Below are positions 3,269-49,553 of a stretch of DNA of 64,000 nt, piece after piece; position 1 is the stretch's first letter, and the number at the start of each line of letters is the position of its first letter. The position numbers and the translations under genes were made by a program. Under the pieces are notes generated by a model. That model saw nothing but the letters and a program-made list of their open reading frames with translations. It did not search any database and was not told the DNA's origin. Where the stretch lies: assembly GCA_041690135.1 (NCBI GenBank), contig JAWLHY010000007.1, positions 256,001 through 320,000 on the forward strand, given 5' to 3'. Origin of the DNA: Armatimonadota bacterium (GTDB lineage Bacteria > Armatimonadota > SYMT01).

Positions 3269-5046
3269 TCTTGTTGAAGGGCACGGATCGCTTCGATGCG
3301 CCGGACGAGGGAAGGGTGGGCGCTGACCGCTTCGTCGCTGGGCTTCAGGCGGCCCGGCACCTCATTCAGGTGATGAACCCGCTCGATGGCCCGGATCGCC
3401 AGTTCCGGGTCACCGATCCATTGCACTGCCAGGCAGTCGGCGGCGTGCTCGCGCGCGCGCATTCCCCGGCCGATGAGGGCCGCCCGAAGGAGCGGTAGCA
3501 GGAAGATCGCGAAGATGGGGCTCTGGAGCAACGCACGCATGGATAAGGGAAGCGAGTCCCGCAGCGCCGCCTCCAGCGCCCCCCACGCCGCCAGCAGAGC
3601 GACGGTTGCCGTAAGCGTGAGGAAGAGGGTCCTTTGGGGATGACCCAGTTTCAAGTGTGCCACCTCGTGGGCGGCAATCGCGCGGACCTCCTCTGGAGCG
3701 AGGCCCTCGATCAGGCCCGTCGTCAGCCCCACGGTGCCGAAAGCGGTGGCAAAGGCATTGGCTTCCTTCGCCCGGACCAGCACCACATGCTTCACGCGTA
3801 TCTTGCCGAGCGCGGCCAACTCGTGGACCATGGCGTGCCACGGTCCATCGTTCAGAGTCTGCCTGCCCGCCCGGAAGGAGCGAATCCCCATCACCAGCAG
3901 GTACACCGGCAGTAGTCCCAGGAGCCCGAAAATGTAGTTCCGCCGGAGCACGAGACCCTCCGGAGTGTAGATGGGCCAGAACAAGGTCGCGGCTATGAGG
4001 AACGGGAAGCCTATGAGCCCGATCAACCAATCGGGCGCCGCGATCGGCCGATCTTCCGCGGGCTCGTTGGGACGGGCAGTTTCCCGAGCCGCCTCCCGTC
4101 TCCGGAAGAGCAAGACGTTGACTACCCCAAACACGGTTGCGATGCCCCCAGCTCCGATTAGACCCCAGAGGAACGGGAGCGGCAGGAGGACTTCCCAGGT
4201 TGTAAATGCCTGTGGGAAGAAGTCTCCCCCGGCAAGCACGACCGGGATCACCAGAAATCCGAGCCGCGTAATCCAGAGCGGTGACTGCCGGTCATACTGC
4301 TTCTGAACCTCTTCGGGCGAAGGCGGCTCGGGGTCCGCTGCTGGTGGGTCCGCCCGCCGGCCATACCGTGCCATGGTGGCGACCGGGAAGAGGAACAGCC
4401 CACCTAGCAGCAAGCCTACCACGATTCCCACCGGTGTGGCTCGGGCCTCGAAGTGAAGCTGCATTCCTGGTGGGATGTCGTCGAGATTCAGGAAGGTCAC
4501 CTCTTCCAGCCGACGCACCGTGCCGTTGTGGGCCAGCCTGGTTTGCGCCATACTGTCTACATCGATCGCCAGGATGATCGGCCGTGGCAGCGAGCTTTGC
4601 TCGAGGGCCGTTCGCAGGCGATGGAGGTCCAGCGAAAAGGCACTCCGCATGCCGCCCCGCTGCAGGTAGTCGTTGAACTCCAGGTCCACCGCCGCAGTGG
4701 AGCGCCCCTGAAGCGTGATAAAGTCCGTCAGAGGCAGGTCGGTGGTTCTCGCGATGCCGCGAGACTCGGTGAGCAGGCGCTCTGCCCCAAACTCCAACGG
4801 CGTCGCGAGCGTCAGGTCGGCGTTCCTGGGGTCGAACGTCAGCAGCGCCTGGGTGCCGGGCTTTCCATTCCGCGGGTCCGGCCATTGGCTTCGGCCTTGC
4901 TTTTCGGCAGCCACCCGAAATCGACGCAGGGAAAGTCCGTACCCGGAGAGGCTCCCACGTTCCACCTCCTGGGCTGTTGCGTGGGACATCGGCCAAAGGT
5001 TGACCAGGAGCAGGCAGAGAAGGCAGAGAAGGCAGAGGGTCCGCAC
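3265..5046 (-). CDS. Membrane M48-family metalloprotease (HtpX-like C-terminal domain) with a long N-terminal region
   Basis: ANAFA, HEVAH zinc motif, EHAAD and HP...RI. Signal peptide and several TM segments. Confidence 0.85.
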   Translation of the reverse strand: MRTLCLLCLLCLLLVNLWPMSHATAQEVERGSLSGYGLSLRRFRVAAEKQGRSQWPDPRNGKPGTQALLTFDPRNADLTLATPLEFGAERLLTESRGIARTTDLPLTDFITLQGRSTAAVDLEFNDYLQRGGMRSAFSLDLHRLRTALEQSSLPRPIILAIDVDSMAQTRLAHNGTVRRLEEVTFLNLDDIPPGMQLHFEARATPVGIVVGLLLGGLFLFPVATMARYGRRADPPAADPEPPSPEEVQKQYDRQSPLWITRLGFLVIPVVLAGGDFFPQAFTTWEVLLPLPFLWGLIGAGGIATVFGVVNVLLFRRREAARETARPNEPAEDRPIAAPDWLIGLIGFPFLIAATLFWPIYTPEGLVLRRNYIFGLLGLLPVYLLVMGIRSFRAGRQTLNDGPWHAMVHELAALGKIRVKHVVLVRAKEANAFATAFGTVGLTTGLIEGLAPEEVRAIAAHEVAHLKLGHPQRTLFLTLTATVALLAAWGALEAALRDSLPLSMRALLQSPIFAIFLLPLLRAALIGRGMRAREHAADCLAVQWIGDPELAIRAIERVHHLNEVPGRLKPSDEAVSAHPSLVRRIEAIRALQQD

Positions 5047-5163
5047 GGCTCGCAGCCTCCAGTCGCAGCGTCATCCAGCGGGATTCATAAGACATTCCGC
5101 TATTCGCGACTGTCTGCCTTCTCTCCTGCCTGGCAACCTGGCAGATGAGCGTCCGTTCTTCGG

Positions 5164-7293
5164 TTATCGCCTCTGGAGGCTCCCGGAAGCCGCTCCGTTG
5201 CCGCTCGAAGAGTCCCGGGCGGCGCCCACGCGAGAAGTGTTGCGGGTTGTGGCGCCGTCCTTTGCGGGGGTTGAGAAGCCGTTGCCTCGGGGGGTGGGGC
5301 GCCGCTGGATGCCGCCCATTTCCAGGCTCATCGCGAGCCCAATGCCGCGGAGCACCCACTCGCGGTTGCCTCGCAGCTCGACCGTTCCGTCATTGACGGA
5401 GGCTCGTCCGGAGCCGATCAGCCCCAGCACACGCCGCTGCAAGGTGGGAGCATCCACCTTTCCGGGTTTCAGGCGAACCTTGTAGGTGTCCCCCTCGGCC
5501 TCCACGCGCACGTCTCCGAGGGCAATTCCCAGCTTGAGGGTCTGAATGCCTTCACTGCTTCCCTGGGCGAGCAGCGTATTCGTTCTCCGGTCTGCGGCGA
5601 TGGTGGCCACCCCGGAAGGAACGCCGCTCTCCTGGAAGAGCAGATGCCGCAGGTCTTCGGCTTCGATCTGCTGCAAACGGTAAGCCTCAATGACCAGGTC
5701 CTTTGCCGGCGCGCCGCCGTCCAATCTCTGCGCGCCGTTGGTCGCTGCTGGAGACTGGAACAAACGGCCGACCAACGGAAGATCCTTGAGGACCGGGACC
5801 CCTCCCGCGTCCGGCGCTGCGGGTGGCGCTGGGGGCGGTGGGGCTTTGTCTGGTCCGTGGGAAGGGGGAGCGGGAGCCCCAGGCTGGCTTGGCGGCGCTG
5901 CCGGGTCCTCTGCTATTCGCAGGCCCGGAGCACCAGGCTGGCTGCCGGGCGCGGTTGCGGGGGGCGGCGGAGCCAGTGCCTGCAGGGGAAGCGGCGCCGG
6001 GACCGGCGCGACGGTGGGTGCCGCCGGAGCCGCCGGTGGAGCCGGCGGTGCGACCATCGAGATCGGCGGCTCCGGGCGGGGCGGTTTCGGCGCGGCGGGT
6101 AGGGGCAATGGCGCCTGGGCCGGACGGGGGGTAGCTTTTGCCGGCGGGCGGCTGCCGGCGGGATCCTTTCCAGCTGCGGCCCGGCCGGCAATGGGCGGAC
6201 TCCCTCCGGGCGGGCTCGCGACCACTCTCCAGGGTACGAGCGCGGCGGGACCGATGAGGGCGACCACGAGGGCCGCCCGTCGCAGCCGGGTGTGGGAAAT
6301 GGGCCTTACGGTTCTGAGCATCTCAATCCTCCTTCGCAGGGAACGATGGCAGCCAACTATCGAGACCGTGGCGGGCGAGGTGCCTGACGGGCCGCTCCAC
6401 CGGGTGGCGACCGTCAACAGCATCGTGGCATAGCGGGCCGGCGCGGCTTTGGTGGCGGTCAGCACCAGTTCGTCGCAGGCGGCCTCGGTCGCCGCCACCC
6501 ATTCGCGGTGCGCCAGCCACACCGCGGGGTGAAAAAAGAAGAGGCAGCGGGCCAGCGTGGGGAGCCAGGCCCAGCACAGGTCCGCCCGCCGCAGGTGGCC
6601 TAATTCGTGCGCGAGCATTAACCGGACGTCTTCCGTTCCGCCCGCAGGTCCGGGATCCGGCAGTACCACCGCGGGTTTCCAGATGCCGGTGAGCATGGGG
6701 GCCGGAGCTTCGCGCGATTCCAGCAGTGCCGGAGGCCTGGCAACCTCCAGCAACCGGCAAACACGCTCGAAGTCGGTGGCCAGCGACGCGTCGGTGACGG
6801 GTACCGTTGTCTGTCGCAGTCTCCGCGACTCCCGGCAAAGTGTTGCCAGCCGCACCAGGAGGGTGACGGTCCCGGTCCCCCAGAGCAAGAAGAGCCATAC
6901 AGCCGGGCGGTTCGAAGCCGGACGGCGGTTGGGGTGGGCCGGGGCCGGTTCCCTTAGGTTAGGGAGACTCCGCCTGGGCTTTGGGTGGAGCCTCGGGGCG
7001 ATTTCCCGGGTTGCGCGCTCCTCAAGAACCGGCGTGGGGGTGATTGCCGCCGGCGTTTGCTCGCGCGGCGGCAGCACCGGCACATCGATCGGCGTAGCCC
7101 AGAAGAGCGACAGCAGCAGTCGCACGTATGCCAGGCGCCATAACCAGCACTGCACCGTGGGCGACAGGCGCGGCAGGAAGCGGCACAGAGCCCACGCTCC
7201 TGCGAGGGCAAGCCCTCCCTGCCAGGAAGCCCTCATGAGAGCGTCGAGCCAGGCGCCGGCGAACGCGTCCAACAGCTCAATCCTGCCGGTCAT
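5164..7293 (-). CDS. BlaR1-like M56 metallopeptidase with Pro-rich linker and secretin-like C-terminal motifs
   Basis: HELGH, FFHP..W, EAACD. C-terminal VPVLKDLPLVGRLF and ADRRTNTLL. Start MTGR follows AAGGAG. Confidence 0.85.
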   Translation of the reverse strand: MTGRIELLDAFAGAWLDALMRASWQGGLALAGAWALCRFLPRLSPTVQCWLWRLAYVRLLLSLFWATPIDVPVLPPREQTPAAITPTPVLEERATREIAPRLHPKPRRSLPNLREPAPAHPNRRPASNRPAVWLFLLWGTGTVTLLVRLATLCRESRRLRQTTVPVTDASLATDFERVCRLLEVARPPALLESREAPAPMLTGIWKPAVVLPDPGPAGGTEDVRLMLAHELGHLRRADLCWAWLPTLARCLFFFHPAVWLAHREWVAATEAACDELVLTATKAAPARYATMLLTVATRWSGPSGTSPATVSIVGCHRSLRRRIEMLRTVRPISHTRLRRAALVVALIGPAALVPWRVVASPPGGSPPIAGRAAAGKDPAGSRPPAKATPRPAQAPLPLPAAPKPPRPEPPISMVAPPAPPAAPAAPTVAPVPAPLPLQALAPPPPATAPGSQPGAPGLRIAEDPAAPPSQPGAPAPPSHGPDKAPPPPAPPAAPDAGGVPVLKDLPLVGRLFQSPAATNGAQRLDGGAPAKDLVIEAYRLQQIEAEDLRHLLFQESGVPSGVATIAADRRTNTLLAQGSSEGIQTLKLGIALGDVRVEAEGDTYKVRLKPGKVDAPTLQRRVLGLIGSGRASVNDGTVELRGNREWVLRGIGLAMSLEMGGIQRRPTPRGNGFSTPAKDGATTRNTSRVGAARDSSSGNGAASGSLQRR

Positions 7294-45186: not shown

Positions 45187-46572
45187 ATGACAGGCGGCAA
45201 TCTCCCTGGCAGGCGGGGATCCACGTTAGGGTTTCTCCTCTGCGTTTGGCTGGCAGCGGTGGCGTACCTTGCCAGCAGGACGCCCGTCTCCGCCGCGCCC
45301 GCGCGACCGAATGTCCTCTTTCTCTTTACCGATGATCAGCGCGCGGATACGATCGGCGCGCTGGGCAACCCGGTCATTCGCACTCCCAACCTCGACTCCC
45401 TCGTGCGTTCCGGATTCACGTTCACCAACGCCTACTGCCTGGGTGCCAACGTGGGTGCGGTGTGCACCCCCAGCCGGAACATGCTTCTCAGCGGGAAAAC
45501 CTACTTCCGCTGGACCGGTAACCTGGCTCCCGCGGAGGGTCTCAACTTCCCCGTCTCCATGCAAAAGGCCGGGTACGAGACCTATCACCATGGCAAGCGG
45601 GGGAACACGGCCCTGCGCATCCAGGCGAAGTTCGAGCACAACTACTACCTGCGGAACGACATGGCGGAGCGGAACAGCGGTGAGCCGGGAAAGGAGATCG
45701 TGGACGCGGCGATCCGGTTCCTGGGCGAACGGAAGGGGGAACGGCCCTTCTTCATGTACCTGGCGTTCGGCAACCCGCATGATCCACGGGTAGCGACGCG
45801 GAAGTACCTGGACCTCTACGATCCCGCGAAGATCCCCCTGCCCCGTAACTACCGCCCACTCCATCCCTTCAACAATGGCGAAATGACCGTGCGCGATGAA
45901 AAGCTGGCACCCTGGCCGCGCACGGAAGCGGAGGTCCGGCGCCATCTCCACGAGTACTACGCCGTGACGACGGCGCTCGATGGGCATATCGGACGGCTTC
46001 TACAAACTCTGAAGGACCGCGGCCAGTACGACAACACGCTGATCGTCTTTTCCTCCGATCACGGTTTGGCTATCGGCAGTCACGGCCTGATGGGCAAGCA
46101 GAACCTCTACGAGCACAGCATGAAGGCGCCACTCGTTTTCAGCGGTCCCGGAATCCGGCGGGGGAAATCGGCAGCGCTGGCCTATCTGCTGGACATCTAT
46201 CCGACCGTATCGGAGTTGGTGGGAGCCGAGACGCCGGCGGACCTCGATGGGAAGAGCCTGAAGCCCGCCCTGGACAACCCGCGCGAACAGGTGCGAGGCG
46301 CCGTTTTCCTCGCCTATCGGGACATCCAGCGCGCCGTCCGCGACGACCGGTGGAAACTCATCCGCTACCCCCAGGTGAACGTGACGCAGCTCTTCGACCT
46401 CCGCAACGACCCGGACGAGCTCCGCGACCTCTCCGACGACCCCCAGCACCGCCGGCACCGGGAGCGGCTGCTGCGGCGGCTTTCCATGGAGCAGCGCCGC
46501 TATGGGGACACAGCTCTTCTCACCGTCCCCAACCCCCAACCCCAGACCTTCGTCCCACCCCCAACTGACTAA
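45187..46572 (+). CDS. Type I (formylglycine-dependent) sulfatase
   Basis: [35 protein letters not shown]. Confidence 0.92.
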
Positions 46573-46582
46573 ACAGGGGTTG

Positions 46583-46709
46583 GGAAGGAACAGGATGGAC
46601 AGGATGAGCAGGATGGACAAAGTGCGAAAATGGCTGTTGGGTTAGACGCACGCGAGGACCAACCGCCAAATCCACTCATCCTACCGATCCTGCCCATCCT
46701 GTTCCTTCC
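46583..46709. repeat. About 34-bp imperfect inverted repeat built of CAGGATGGA-like nonamers
   Basis: ggaaggaacaggatggacaggatgagcaggatgg versus tcatcctaccgatcctgcccatcctgttccttcc, between convergent genes. Confidence 0.75.
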
Positions 46710-46733
46710 GATCGCTCTCATCCCAATTTGTGA

Positions 46734-47462
46734 CTAAGCCTTGCGTCCCGGAGCCAGCGCGGCGGCCGCCGTGGTCATGACCTCCGTCGGCACGGCGATC
46801 ACCACGGTGTTGCCCAGCCCGTCGCCGACCTGCGTCAGCGCCTCGATCTCCCGCAGGCGGACCAGCATCGGGTTCTCCTGCAGCATCCGCGCCGTGTTGG
46901 CCCGCGCCCGGGTGGCCGCCACTTCCTCCCGCGCCGCGACCAGGGCCGCCCGCCCCGTCCGCTGCGCTTCCAGCTCCTGCGACAGCATCTTCTTCACCTC
47001 GCCCGGCAGGATGATGTCCTTCACCCCCACGCGCAGCAACTCGAGGCCCAGGTCCGTGGCGGCCGCGCGACCCGGTTCCAGCAGTTCCGTGGAAAGCGCC
47101 CCGCGCCCCGCAAGGAGTTCATCCAGCGACCGCGTCTGCACCGCCTCCCGCAGGGAGAGCTGGATCGCCGTGTACAACGAGATTTGGTAGTTTTCCACCG
47201 TGTGGAGCGCGGTAACGGCATCGACCACGCGGTACTCGGCCGCCACGTTCAGCCGCACGGAGATGCCGTCCGCGGTCAGCATTTCCTGGCCGTTGATCGT
47301 CATCTCCGTCCGCCGGGTGTCGACGCGGACGATCTCCTGCTTCAACCACGGCAGGTGCAGCAGGCGGTGGCGCCCCGGCTCCACGGCGCCCAGGAACTGT
47401 CCGTTGCTATAGAGAAGGCCCACTTCCGTCTCGCGTACCGTTTCGTGATCGATCCACAACAT
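46734..47462 (-). CDS. SPFH/band-7 (slipin-type) protein, 242 aa
   Basis: QEMLTADG..VRLN, Q..LREAV....LDELL, VKDIILPG, AREE.AATR...NTAR...ENP.L.RLRE.E. ATG at 47462 follows AGGAGG. Confidence 0.9.
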   Translation of the reverse strand: MLWIDHETVRETEVGLLYSNGQFLGAVEPGRHRLLHLPWLKQEIVRVDTRRTEMTINGQEMLTADGISVRLNVAAEYRVVDAVTALHTVENYQISLYTAIQLSLREAVQTRSLDELLAGRGALSTELLEPGRAAATDLGLELLRVGVKDIILPGEVKKMLSQELEAQRTGRAALVAAREEVAATRARANTARMLQENPMLVRLREIEALTQVGDGLGNTVVIAVPTEVMTTAAAALAPGRKA

Positions 47463-47484
47463 CCTCGACCTCCTACAAACGTTC

Positions 47485-47650
47485 AAAAAAGCACAGCCGG
47501 CCGGCCGCCGGTCGCCACCGGCGGGGGCGCGGTTGACGCCGGAAGCGTTCCGGCCCGTAGGCCGGTTCGGATCCGGCGGGTATCCCCGCACCCGCAAAGC
47601 CGGTTTCGACACCGTCACCAGGACGGCTCACGGCCGGCCGCACTGCGCTC
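47485..47650 (-). ncRNA. Putative structured RNA closed by a long GC stem and a U6 tract
   Basis: Minus-strand GCGCAGTGCGGCCGGCCG can pair with CGGCCGGCCGGCTGTGC, which is followed by TTTTTT. Several internal hairpins. Confidence 0.4.
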
Positions 47651-47702
47651 GCACAGGATTCGAACCTGCATTTGCCCAGATACCGGTTAACAGCCGGTTG
47701 GC
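47645..47702 (-). ncRNA. Partial tRNA-like element: anticodon arm (GUU) plus T arm, no canonical D arm
   Basis: ACCGG CTGTTAA CCGGT (47682-47698) and GCAGG TTCGAAT CCTGT (47653-47669). Confidence 0.55.
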
Positions 47703-47769
47703 ATGTGCCGGCCCGATGCGCGGAACGTCCTTCGGCACAGCCCCGGACGCCGCTTGGGTGCGCGGCACA

Positions 47770-47841
47770 TCGGCGCGCCTGGAGTCGAACCAGGATCAGT
47801 CCCTTATAAGGGGACCGCTCTAACCCTTGAGCTACGCGCCG
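47770..47841 (-). tRNA. tRNA-Ile with UAU anticodon (CCA not encoded)
   Basis: Hand-folded cloverleaf: CGGCGCG UA GCUC AAGGGUUA GAGC G GUCCC CU-UAU-AA GGGAC UGAU CCUGG UUCGACU CCAGG CGCGCCG A. All four stems fully paired. Confidence 0.92.
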
Positions 47842-47850
47842 AAGACATGG

Positions 47851-47897
47851 AAAACAAAACACCCCCGCCGGATCCTGGGGGGACCGGCGGGGGTGTT
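47851..47897 (-). terminator. Intrinsic terminator upstream of the tRNA (attenuator)
   Basis: 14-bp perfect stem AACACCCCCGCCGG / CCGGCGGGGGTGTT, 12-nt loop, then TTGTTTT. Confidence 0.85.
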
Positions 47898-47927
47898 CGA
47901 AAACTTCCCGGAAAGCTGCTCGTACGC

Positions 47928-48083
47928 CTAAAGCGTGAAGAGCCTCCTCCTACCGGTCCGGATGGCCGCAGGGAATGCTATGCGGCCGCTGTTCCCAAAG
48001 AGGTACGGCCACGCATTCGCCCCCAGATTTCTCGGGGCGCGTATCGCGGCTTCTATTCGCTTGGAGTAGCGGTTCATCAACAT
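47928..48083 (-). CDS. Putative leader peptide (51 aa) rich in rare codons
   Basis: MLMNRYSKRIEAAIRAPRNLGANAWPYLFGNSGRIAFPAAIRTGRRRLFTL*. ATA at codons 10, 14 and 35, plus CGA, AGA and AGG-AGG-AGG. Lies between promoter and terminator. No clear SD sequence. Confidence 0.6.
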   Translation of the reverse strand: MLMNRYSKRIEAAIRAPRNLGANAWPYLFGNSGRIAFPAAIRTGRRRLFTL

Positions 48084-48133
48084 CGTCGTTTGCGGTTGCT
48101 CGGTTCCGTGCTGCCTAACCGGCAGTGATGGGA

Positions 48134-48162
48134 ATGGTAGCCGACAGTCCGGGCGGTGTCAA
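48134..48162 (-). promoter_or_regulatory. Sigma70-type promoter
   Basis: TTGACA - 17 nt - TACCAT. Confidence 0.8.
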
Positions 48163-48201
48163 CCCCTTTGGCTAGGTGTCAATGGATCTGCCAACGAAGG
48201 T

Positions 48202-48256
48202 GGCACCGGTAGGGTACGTCTCGTACACCCGGCGAAGTTAGGGCCGCAGCGTTCCG
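48202..48256 (+). repeat. GTAG-type REP-like element with 20-nt micro-insert
   Basis: ggcaccggtagggtacgtctc [gtacacccggcgaagttagg] gccgcagcgttccg. Confidence 0.78.
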
Positions 48257-48581
48257 TTGTCATGGAGCTGATCCCGTCCTGACCACTCTTAGCTGTCCCG
48301 TGGCCGGAAGGGTCCGGCTTGGCCCCACGAGATCAACATCGGCGCCTGCGGAATGGAACGGCCCTAGCTGCGCCGGGTGTACGTCACATTCCCTACTATC
48401 AAGAGTGCACGTGACGCTCCGCGAGCCCGAACCACCTCACCAGAGGTGGATACAAAGCCGTAACGGACCCCCTGATGCACCACATAGCCGACAAATGCGG
48501 GTGACCACAGGGCAGTTGCCATGTGTAGCCGGGGCACCCACTCGTGGGTCGTCACTCGCCCAGCACAGCCCTTGGCAATCC

Positions 48582-49346
48582 CTAATCGGCCGCCCGGTCG
48601 CGGAGTGCCCGCCGCTCCCAGTGCGCCAGGACTACCCGGCCCCCTTCCACTTCCAGGCGGGCGATACCGGCGAAGAAGGCAAAGGCGTAGACCTGCAGGA
48701 TCGGCACGCCGTTCACCACGGCCGGCTCCAGCAGGTCCGTGTGGCTGTGGCCGCCGATGATGAGGTCCAATTCCGGGCAGGCTTCCGCCAGGGCCTGGTC
48801 TTGCCGGAACCCGATGTGCGTGAGCCCCACCAGCACGTCCACCCGCGGGCGCAGGTCCGCTATCTGCTGCCGTGCCGCCTTCAAGGGGTCGTCGAACCAG
48901 TAGTCGCAGAACGGCTGGGACCACTGCTTGCGCGTGAACATGGGGACCGTAACGCCGAAGACACCCACCTGGACGTCTCCTATCGGCAGGACTACGTGGG
49001 GCACGGTCGGCAGGGGAGCTCCACCCTTGGCGGTGACGTTGGCGCAGAGCAACGGAAAGCGGGCACGATCGACCTTAAGCGGGAAGCACTCCCGCCGGGG
49101 ATGCGTTTCCCGATTGCCCAGGCACATCGCTCGGCAACCGAGATCGGACAGCGTCTCCAATGCCGGTTCGCCACCGATCCGAAAGCCCAGGTTGCCCGCC
49201 GAAACGGTATCACCGGCATCCAGGTAAAGCGCACCGGGATGCTCCGCCAACAGCGCGCGCAGCCGCTCGGCCGGGGGCGGTCCGGGCTCCTTCCACTGCG
49301 CTCCAAAGCGCCCGTGGCTATCGTTGGTATGGATCAGGGTGAGCAT
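48582..49346 (-). CDS. Calcineurin-like metallophosphoesterase (5'-nucleotidase N-terminal-like)
   Basis: IHTNDSHG, LDAGD, GNRE, LTHIG, GGHSH. Confidence 0.85.
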   Translation of the reverse strand: MLTLIHTNDSHGRFGAQWKEPGPPPAERLRALLAEHPGALYLDAGDTVSAGNLGFRIGGEPALETLSDLGCRAMCLGNRETHPRRECFPLKVDRARFPLLCANVTAKGGAPLPTVPHVVLPIGDVQVGVFGVTVPMFTRKQWSQPFCDYWFDDPLKAARQQIADLRPRVDVLVGLTHIGFRQDQALAEACPELDLIIGGHSHTDLLEPAVVNGVPILQVYAFAFFAGIARLEVEGGRVVLAHWERRALRDRAAD

Positions 49347-49352
49347 GGGAAT

Positions 49353-49553
49353 GGTGTTCAGGTGGGCAGGTGTTCGGGTATTCAGGTGTTCGGTCCCCCC
49401 TGTGGGGGTAAACGTTGGGCATCGGGCCACCCCGCGGGTGGTAAACGTTCAGGCATTGGGCAATCAGGCTTTGGGCCGCTCCAAATACCTTGTGAAAGCC
49501 TGACTGCCGGAAAGTTTGGGAGCTGAACACCCGAACACCGAACACCTGAACAC
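49353..49553. repeat. Octamer arrays in inverted orientation, interrupted by two GTTTAC-hairpin inserts
   Basis: ggtgttca-type units at 49353-49460 and tgaacacc-type units at 49524-49553. Inserts at 49396-49413 and 49428-49446. Confidence 0.75.

Follow-up and report, generated by a model that had tools for sequence, protein, structure and literature searches.

Here we analyse a leader region and the genes behind it in a 64,000-nucleotide stretch of DNA (the window) from an Armatimonadota bacterium (GenBank assembly GCA_041690135.1, contig JAWLHY010000007.1, positions 256,001 to 320,000). The genome is 9.1 Mb long in 25 contigs, has 65% G+C, and its closest relatives are labelled Armatimonadota. 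On the minus strand, to which all window coordinates below refer, the locus runs from a sigma-70-type promoter through a leader with a short open reading frame (ORF) and an intrinsic terminator to a tRNA with anticodon UAU, a structured RNA and an SPFH/Band-7 gene (Table 1). A first-pass annotation, made from the letters and their open reading frames, had drawn the same six parts, and our analysis places each of them where that annotation did. It had also proposed that ribosomes stalled at ATA (AUA in the RNA), a rare isoleucine codon of the leader ORF, prevent termination and thereby induce a back-up tRNA for that codon together with the SPFH gene. The leader and its ATA codons turn out to be shared with related bacteria, and they are the main subject of what follows.

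Table 1. Features of the leader and the operon behind it in the window.
Feature	Position	Strand	Basis
Sigma-70-type promoter, TTGACA-17-TACCAT	48162-48134	minus	sequence scan
Leader 5' hairpin, CUGCC-GGUUA-GGCAG	48111..48125	minus	nascent-RNA fold
Leader ORF, 51 codons + TAG	47928..48083	minus	ORF translation
G-rich tract CAUCCGGACCGGUAGGAGGA, candidate antiterminator strand, within the final codons of the ORF	47945..47964	minus	duplex and nascent folds
Intrinsic terminator: stem ACACCCCCGCCGG / CCGGCGGGGGUGU, then UUUUGUUUU	47851..47897	minus	RNAfold
Cloverleaf tRNA, anticodon UAU (Ile), A73, C1-G72, no encoded CCA	47770..47841	minus	Rfam, ARAGORN
Conserved structured RNA, b7a-type, tRNA-like	47487..47768	minus	alignment and RNAalifold
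tRNA-like module within the structured RNA; 7-nt anticodon-like loop CUGUUAA and T-arm	47645..47722	minus	ARAGORN
SPFH/Band-7 gene, 242 amino acids; Shine-Dalgarno AGGAGG at 47474-47469	46734..47462	minus	Pfam

The promoter is the single sigma-70-like site between positions 46000 and 49000 (one found, 0.3 expected from shuffles). The terminator hairpin occupies 47897-47861, is followed by TTTTGTTTT and has a folding energy of about -37 kcal/mol (RNAfold); a simple terminator scan passed over it because its bulged stem and its loop fall outside the scan rule. Only 10 nucleotides (nt) separate the T tract from the tRNA, and the scan for sigma-70-like sites found no promoter-like site between the two, in keeping with the annotation's proposal, which a separate promoter of the tRNA would contradict. 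The annotation had further described the isoleucine codons of neighbouring genes as mostly ATC. The genome count bears this out: across 5469 long ORFs (2.2 million codons), isoleucine is encoded by ATC in 81.9% of cases, by ATT in 14.6% and by ATA in 3.5%, which puts ATA at 1.3 per 1000 codons. In the leader ORF of the window, ATA is found at codons 10, 14 and 35 (48056-48054, 48044-48042 and 47981-47979) and ATC once.

Ten distinct leaders from Armatimonadota genomes and metagenomes were compared: that of the window and those of the loci L007, L009, L010, L011, L064, L066, L068, L102 and L110. A search of the 32 and 24 genomes of the two families that hold the closest orthologues gave one more locus, L118, which is outside the analysed set. 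Of 25 stretches returned by a pattern scan of metagenomes, 16 were rejected as chance matches, since neither an SPFH gene nor a T-loop or GAUACC motif was present downstream of them. By eye, promoters of the form TTGACA or TTGACC also head the leaders of L007, L009, L010, L011, L064, L066, L068 and L102. A GTTGCC...GGCAGC hairpin akin to the 5' hairpin of the window's leader is found in L007, L010, L011 and L066 (partly by eye); it is not present in L064, L068 or L009.

All ten leaders end in homologous strong terminators with the core CGCCCCCGC...GCGGGGGCGUUUU, and in every locus the terminator lies 0-30 nt ahead of the sole downstream genes, a gap too short to hold a promoter before the tRNA. 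All ten also have an ORF of 40 codons or more that ends 24-34 nt ahead of the terminator's 5' arm; the upstream ORF foreseen by the annotation is thus kept at a set distance from a conserved terminator. Per locus, 3-8.5% of dinucleotide shuffles yield an ORF of this kind (0.03-0.085; product 4e-13), figures that have to be read knowing that the distance window was picked after the data had been seen and that the loci are related. A second ORF of at least 40 codons upstream of the arm occurs only in L068, where it ends 81 nt ahead of the arm. The leader ORF frame holds an excess of the C-ending codons GCC, TTC, TAC and ACC over dinucleotide shuffles, and between L064 and the near-identical L112 the ORF differs by two synonymous changes and one non-synonymous change; on these two grounds the frame appears to be coding. 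The peptides themselves are poorly conserved, barely alignable and rich in Arg, Gly and Ala, and the window's product has no Pfam match. At the RNA level, alignment of the leaders with MAFFT (50% mean column identity) gave no usable consensus structure, and the leader has no Rfam match. Near the N-terminus of the ORF, L007, L010, L011, L064, L066 and L110 carry a conserved island, with peptide A-T-T-x-Y-R and nucleotides GCNACAACNNNNTAYCG; in the window the island nucleotides fall in another frame and give ATA codon 14.

The codon on which the proposal turns is over-represented in these ORFs. Together they hold 12 in-frame ATA among 556 codons, spread over nine of the ten; shuffles give a mean of 4.8 (P=0.0005), and genome usage would predict 0.7. 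By over-representation ATA ranks second of the 61 codons. Given that the hypothesis was derived from the window, the test was rerun with that leader excluded, and the enrichment held, with nine ATA in eight of nine ORFs (total count, P=0.013; ORFs with ATA, P=0.001). Past codon 20, ATA is found nine times in frame and once out of frame (P=0.0004). Half of the isoleucine codons of the leader ORFs are ATA (12/24), compared with a fraction of 0.22 expected from third-position composition (P=0.002). In eight of the nine ATA-bearing ORFs, the last ATA lies 61-108 nt ahead of the terminator arm. All these P values are optimistic, since the loci are phylogenetically related and several of the windows were set post hoc, which weighs against the case as a whole.

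An attenuator also needs a strand that can compete for the terminator, and the annotation had pointed to complementary strings at 47959-47946 and 47893-47881. These do pair in the nascent-RNA fold, and the best duplex of the window's tract with the terminator's 5' arm has -13.9 kcal/mol. All ten leaders carry a G-rich tract resembling a Shine-Dalgarno sequence (GGAGG, GGGGG or GGNGG), placed 13-36 nt upstream of where the stop codon ends, with shuffle frequencies of 0.05-0.36 per locus for a position window chosen post hoc. Taken across the leaders, the tract falls in each of the three reading frames (AGG AGG, GGA GGA, GAG GAG), which marks it as a feature of the RNA. The best duplex with the arm coincides with the tract in six of the ten. 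In all nine nascent folds computed with a ribosome over the last ATA, 7-11 bases of the arm pair with upstream sequence. Moreover, the tracts fit their own arms better than those of other loci (-219.5 vs -201.1 +/- 8.7; P=0.02).

Other results tell against this pairing. Compared with shuffles of the whole upstream region, the nascent folds of eight leaders show no excess of antiterminator pairing: shuffles did at least as well with frequencies of 0.40, 0.59, 0.12, 0.48, 0.05, 0.14, 0.15 and 0.69, and in the window the stabilization was -7.2 kcal/mol vs -6.5 +/- 3.1 for shuffles. Folding both conformers told against it as well: the tract, which pairs with the arm in the nascent fold, loses to the terminator by 26 kcal/mol at equilibrium (-128.0 vs -102.2). 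By eye, the window's tract covers the inner stem and the loop alone, leaving free nine outer G-C-rich pairs by the U tract. The antiterminator of the annotation thus stands on the conserved tract and its match to its own arm, and fails in the general shuffle test; taken together, we regard it as moderately supported.

The mechanism that we infer from this anatomy would work as follows. The sigma-70-type promoter would drive a leader of about 290 nt that contains the probably translated 51-codon ORF and ends in the strong intrinsic terminator, and the tRNA, the structured RNA and the SPFH gene would be transcribed solely by read-through. A ribosome reaching the stop codon, 31 nt ahead of the arm, would cover the G-rich tract, so that the terminator could form and transcription would end. 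A ribosome held at an in-frame AUA, the last of which lies 82 nt ahead of the arm in the window, would instead leave the tract free to pair with the arm, allowing read-through. AUA is the rarest isoleucine codon and is read by the TilS-dependent tRNA-Ile2; as the isoleucine codon most prone to stalling, it would act as a 'canary' that signals trouble in decoding. If charged, the induced tRNA(UAU) could then close a negative feedback loop. Ribosome-mediated transcription attenuation is our best reading of the leader, one that we favour tentatively and without counting on it.

Several observations agree with another arrangement, in which the leader ORF is an independent small gene or a transcribed spacer, the terminator is leaky, constitutive low read-through supplies the downstream products and RNase P separates the parts, while ATA codons and G-rich tract play no part in regulation. 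A stop codon 24-34 nt before a terminator is ordinary gene-end geometry, and by our estimate long ORFs are common at 65% G+C. The weak conservation and Arg/Gly/Ala-rich composition of the peptides, the terminator's stability far above any alternative fold and the null result of the general shuffle test all agree with it. The leader ORFs of L011, L064, L068 and the window lack a recognizable Shine-Dalgarno sequence, and in the window the annotation had already seen no clear one; this counts against translation of the leader. Even so, we judge the arrangement of small gene and leaky terminator unlikely. It leaves unexplained the in-frame excess of ATA, replicated when the window is left out, the conservation of the tract at one position in three frames, and the match of the tract to its own arm. 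A strong terminator so close ahead of the genes would also be odd for constitutive expression.

The ATA codons themselves raise further difficulties for attenuation. Over whole ORFs, ATA is found 12 times in frame and 13 times out of frame (P=0.09), so frame specificity is not clear; much of the out-of-frame count comes from the conserved A-TAY island. Each leader carries just one to three ATA, none in tandem. The leader ORF of L009 has none, and the sole ATA of L010 is 169 nt from the arm. Other rare codons exceed genome usage too (ACA 10 vs 1.5, AAT 10 vs 2.7), and counted in all frames of the leaders the ATA trinucleotide is found 33 times vs 20.8 expected from dinucleotides (z=2.7). The L009 ORF, which stands ahead of a tRNA with anticodon GAU, uses ATC twice; this is a single event and suggestive at most.

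An over-representation of ATA in every frame is what one would expect if the leader were an untranslated sensor acting at the RNA level, with the open frame incidental. Such a sensor could work by T-box-like pairing of AUA with the UAU anticodon, or through a protein bound to the GCNACAACNNNNUAYCG island or to the tract. The AUAY island is conserved, yet the window and L064 read it in different frames from the other loci; L009, with its GAU tRNA, has AUAUC at the island (by eye), and the G-rich tract is independent of frame. This kind of sensor would leave the open frame and the position of its stop, kept in 10/10 leaders despite heavy divergence, to coincidence, along with the nine-to-one preference for the reading frame past codon 20 and the coding-like bias to C-ending codons. 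A search of positions 46000-49000 against Rfam at E<=1 returned the tRNA and weak, chance-level matches only, with no T-box and no other family for the leader, and the alignment described above yielded no consensus leader structure. We therefore consider an RNA-level sensor quite improbable.

The annotation had built its feedback loop on the tRNA, and a leader specific to the tRNA is not supported. In L110 the order is leader, terminator, a GNAT acetyltransferase gene, tRNA(UAU) and core RNA. Leader and terminator are followed in L010 by the GNAT gene, an inverted repeat, core RNA, SPFH and RtcB, and in L068 by core RNA and SPFH. The last two loci retain the leader with no tRNA at all, an obstacle to any loop built on the tRNA alone. 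Thus, the leader would control the whole operon of SPFH gene and tRNA-like RNA, and the tRNA is one frequent output of it. The arrangement of L010, with RtcB at its end, fits a stress-induced RNA-repair operon. No such leader was found in L067, L106 or L095, or in more distant loci such as L013. The GNAT genes lie at about 300-690 in L110 and at 1982-2374 in L010 (Pfam Acetyltransf_10/1/7), and neither NCBIfam nor PADLOC gave the protein a specific name.

The tRNA at 47841-47770 scores 67.1 bits against the Rfam tRNA model (E 9e-14) and has the anticodon loop CUUAUAA. A cloverleaf tRNA is found just upstream of the core RNA in nine distinct loci (the window, L007, L009, L011, L064, L066, L102, L110 and L115), all with the acceptor stem CGGCGYG/CGCGCCG and A73. 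Among these nine orthologues 97.4% of cells are paired and 12 of 21 pairs show compensatory change, a level reached in 0/500 shuffles; by this covariation, the cloverleaf appears to be under strong selection. Eight loci have the anticodon UAU, which matches the enriched leader codon; two of them deviate around it, L066 with an out-of-register anticodon stem and L007 with C37. The ninth lineage (L009, identical to L065 and L111) has GAU, which speaks against a dedicated AUA reader; the anticodon is of isoleucine type in 9/9. A73, C4-G69, A35 and U36 occur in 9/9 tRNAs and A37 in 8/9, positions that are among the identity elements for isoleucyl-tRNA synthetase (IleRS). The missing encoded CCA was considered as an oddity of this tRNA and rejected, as by eye most tRNAs of the genome lack CCA.

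The genome seems well able to read AUA by other means. The N-terminal domain of TilS is found at C19:60303-60881 (188.5 bits, cut-off 93.6), and one of five CAT tRNAs, at C9:186297-186368, presumably represents tRNA-Ile2, judging by its likeness to the E. coli tRNA. With TilS and a tRNA-Ile2(CAU)-like gene present, the UAU tRNA would be an extra and not the sole reader of AUA. ARAGORN found no tRNA-Ile(GAU) in the assembly, a gap that we assume to reflect unassembled rRNA operons. The genome's IleRS aligns CERCW with CPRCW of E. coli, that is, it has Trp at the position of E. coli W905, and this is a further point against decoding by the UAU tRNA. In E. coli, the wild-type enzyme prefers LAU (L, lysidine) over UAU 360-fold and the W905R mutant 18-fold (PMC3575796). 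These findings tell against the annotation's lysidine-independent back-up reader, as does the GAU lineage, and we consider the tRNA doubtful in that role.

Whatever the leader does, then, the tRNA(UAU) may not be a working AUA decoder. As a Band-7-associated tRNA it could serve the SPFH (and RtcB) module as a bait, a mimic or a cofactor, or act as a signal for processing by RNase P and RNase Z. We regard this as a strong possibility, if not quite the likelier outcome. In every case the tRNA accompanies the SPFH/tRNA-like RNA module, where the literature predicts a cofactor RNA (10.1101/312249), and by eye the window's SPFH gene contains zero ATA codons. The Trp-type IleRS, the decoding capacity already provided by TilS and the CAU tRNA, and the deviations in L007, L009 and L066 all lean the same way. 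What holds us back is the selection on the cloverleaf and its retention of IleRS identity features. The isoleucine-type anticodon in 9/9 loci and its match to the enriched leader codon also count against a mere mimic. Furthermore, Taniguchi et al. 2013 (PMC3575796) note other bacteria in which tilS occurs alongside a tRNA-Ile(TAT) gene and an IleRS of the Trp type. The full codon-specific loop, in which stalling at AUA would induce a tRNA for that same codon together with the tRNA-like RNA and the SPFH scaffold (plus RtcB or GNAT in relatives), is in our judgement possible but doubtful.

Downstream of the tRNA lies the structured RNA of about 300 nt. It is closed by the helix GUGCCGC/GCGGCAC and contains an internal stem, the T-arm CAGGUUCGAAUCCUG and, as its 3' domain, GGGGAUACCC...GGCGUCAACC. 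In close relatives, the RNA between tRNA and SPFH gene is kept in sequence and in structure, with the closing helix GUGCC/GGCAC, and compensatory changes occur in 18 of the 27 pairs of the RNAalifold consensus. The structured RNA has no Rfam match at E<=1. Within it, ARAGORN names 47722-47645 'tRNA-Asn gtt', while the Rfam tRNA model gives no score there at E<=1. Hairpins of the core RNA carry 7-nt anticodon-like loops, CUGUUAA in the window (47690-47705), L066 and L069, and CUGAUAA in L102 and L066. A second ARAGORN call of 'Asn gtt', at C16:40502, was rejected as spurious since it falls within a coding region. A terminator-like hairpin followed by T6 lies at 47511-47487, between the core RNA and the SPFH Shine-Dalgarno sequence; its T run is not kept in L007, L009 or L010. 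A BLAST search of the window's own genome found no paralogue of the region.

The SPFH protein matches Pfam Band_7 over residues 8-180 (E 1.3e-27) and is 62% identical to its orthologue in G007. It is single-copy in the window's genome (G000), where no further SPFH paralogue was found. Only weak HflK-like matches under cut-off were found in NCBIfam and none in PADLOC. Orthologues span many phyla (52 loci); in the phylum itself, 73/401 genomes have one at E<=1e-30. A same-strand T-loop motif up to 1 kb ahead of the SPFH gene occurs in 37 of the 52 loci and in none of 52 control stretches. The close orthologues are patchy, occurring in 6/32 genomes of one family, 2/24 of another and only G000 among seven genomes searched of the window's own family, a distribution that suggests an accessory module. 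Three distant orthologues (L071, L072 and L073; 191-203 bits) lie within same-strand arrays of 10, 4 and 14 tRNAs, with tRNAs on both sides of the SPFH gene (upstream and downstream). G000 itself has a one-strand array of 10 tRNA genes, including a CAT tRNA, outside the window on contig C4 (52411-53600).

The annotation had pointed to a link between Band-7 genes, tRNA-like genes and RtcB. This link is real: it is cited in 10.1101/312249, and 14 of the 80 retrieved loci have an RtcB homologue immediately after the SPFH gene, mostly metagenome-assembled genomes of Clostridia, with one of Verrucomicrobiales and L010/L063. In L010, the RtcB homologue is at 4141-5193. The window's SPFH gene has no adjacent RtcB, and the genome's two copies are on contigs C2 and C3.

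Elsewhere around the operon, a gene for a calcineurin-like metallophosphoesterase lies upstream on the same strand (48582-49430 minus; Pfam, E 6e-06), and the upstream gene of L069 is likewise a metallophosphoesterase by its GHTHGGQ motif (by eye). A divergent ORF of about 221 amino acids upstream of the leader promoter is conserved in five loci (L010, at 852-1517 minus, L009, L011, L064 and L068), and its protein has no Pfam, NCBIfam or PADLOC match. The next gene downstream of the SPFH gene in the window is a convergent sulfatase gene. An imperfect inverted repeat of about 130 nt (46583-46710) lies in the space that separates the SPFH stop codon from the sulfatase gene's end, with weak miRNA-like Rfam matches far under gathering scores.

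Comparison with known systems helps to separate what is familiar here from what is new. The window's tRNA, structured RNA and SPFH gene match the Band-7-associated tRNA (b7a) module, which was predicted by Burroughs and Aravind in 2016 (NAR 44:8525) and has a predicted link to RNA repair; we take its definition second-hand from 10.1101/312249. As in that module, an SPFH/Band-7 gene directly follows a tRNA-like non-coding RNA. Unlike it, the window has no RtcB next to the SPFH gene, and this clade has a true cloverleaf tRNA-Ile in addition to the larger tRNA-like RNA. The passage of 10.1101/312249 that describes the module says nothing of the leader unit (promoter, ORF and terminator). A full-text literature search, which did not extend to the 2016 paper and its supplements, turned up no leader-ORF attenuator described ahead of a tRNA gene, a non-coding RNA operon or a Band-7/b7a module. 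The new part is the leader attached to the module predicted earlier.

Two other systems resemble parts of the operon. The YrlA and Y RNAs, found with Rsr (Ro60) next to RtcB, likewise place a tRNA-like non-coding RNA beside a presumed scaffold in RNA-repair neighbourhoods (10.1101/312249); here, in contrast, the protein partner is SPFH and not TROVE, and there is no Rfam match to Y RNA or YrlA. Mycoplasma mobile decodes AUA with a tRNA-Ile(UAU) (Taniguchi et al. 2013; PMC3575796), and the window shares with such systems a bacterial cloverleaf tRNA with UAU, whose coexistence with tilS that source reports for some species. By the source's criterion, the IleRS of such a system has Arg or Lys where the one here keeps Trp; a system of the M. 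mobile type also lacks tilS, which the window genome carries. The tRNA here is, moreover, an accessory one of patchy distribution, linked both to the SPFH module and to a leader terminator.

If the proposed mechanism is true, the cell monitors the decoding of one rare codon and answers with the matching tRNA and an RNA-repair-type module. This would be the first tRNA gene controlled through its own codon, and the first known inducing signal for the b7a-tRNA/Band-7 RNA-repair module. The leader may then tell when the module is switched on, hence what its purpose could be. It offers an experimental handle on a system that, as cited in 10.1101/312249, has been no more than a bioinformatic prediction since 2016. 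Even with the tRNA as a mimic, leader ORF, G-rich tract and terminator form a conserved set that can be tested as a regulatory element.

The closest parallels to the leader itself are found among attenuators that respond to translation. A stalled ribosome on a short upstream ORF would here lead to expression of downstream stress genes, and in this the leader resembles ermC, bmrB-bmrCD and PA5471.1-armZ/MexXY, where leader peptides sense translation stress and stalling switches on resistance or rescue genes. These known cases respond to antibiotics or to CCA/tRNA defects through particular peptide or codon contexts, and our literature search found no leader of this type controlling a tRNA gene or an SPFH/tRNA-like RNA module. 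Attenuation by leader peptides is also textbook knowledge for amino-acid operons and some synthetases, such as trp, his and pheST, as well as for resistance genes. In common with trp, his and pheST, the present leader has near its promoter a short ORF in which one codon is enriched, and this ORF stops ahead of an intrinsic terminator. A 3' segment of the ORF is complementary to the terminator's 5' arm, and the genes that would be controlled follow directly downstream. The leader differs from those systems in having a candidate antiterminator much weaker than its terminator, and in using one to three scattered copies of a single rare codon, AUA, in place of a codon run for one amino acid. Finally, its outputs are RNAs and an SPFH protein, and they include a tRNA that matches the very codon the leader would sense.

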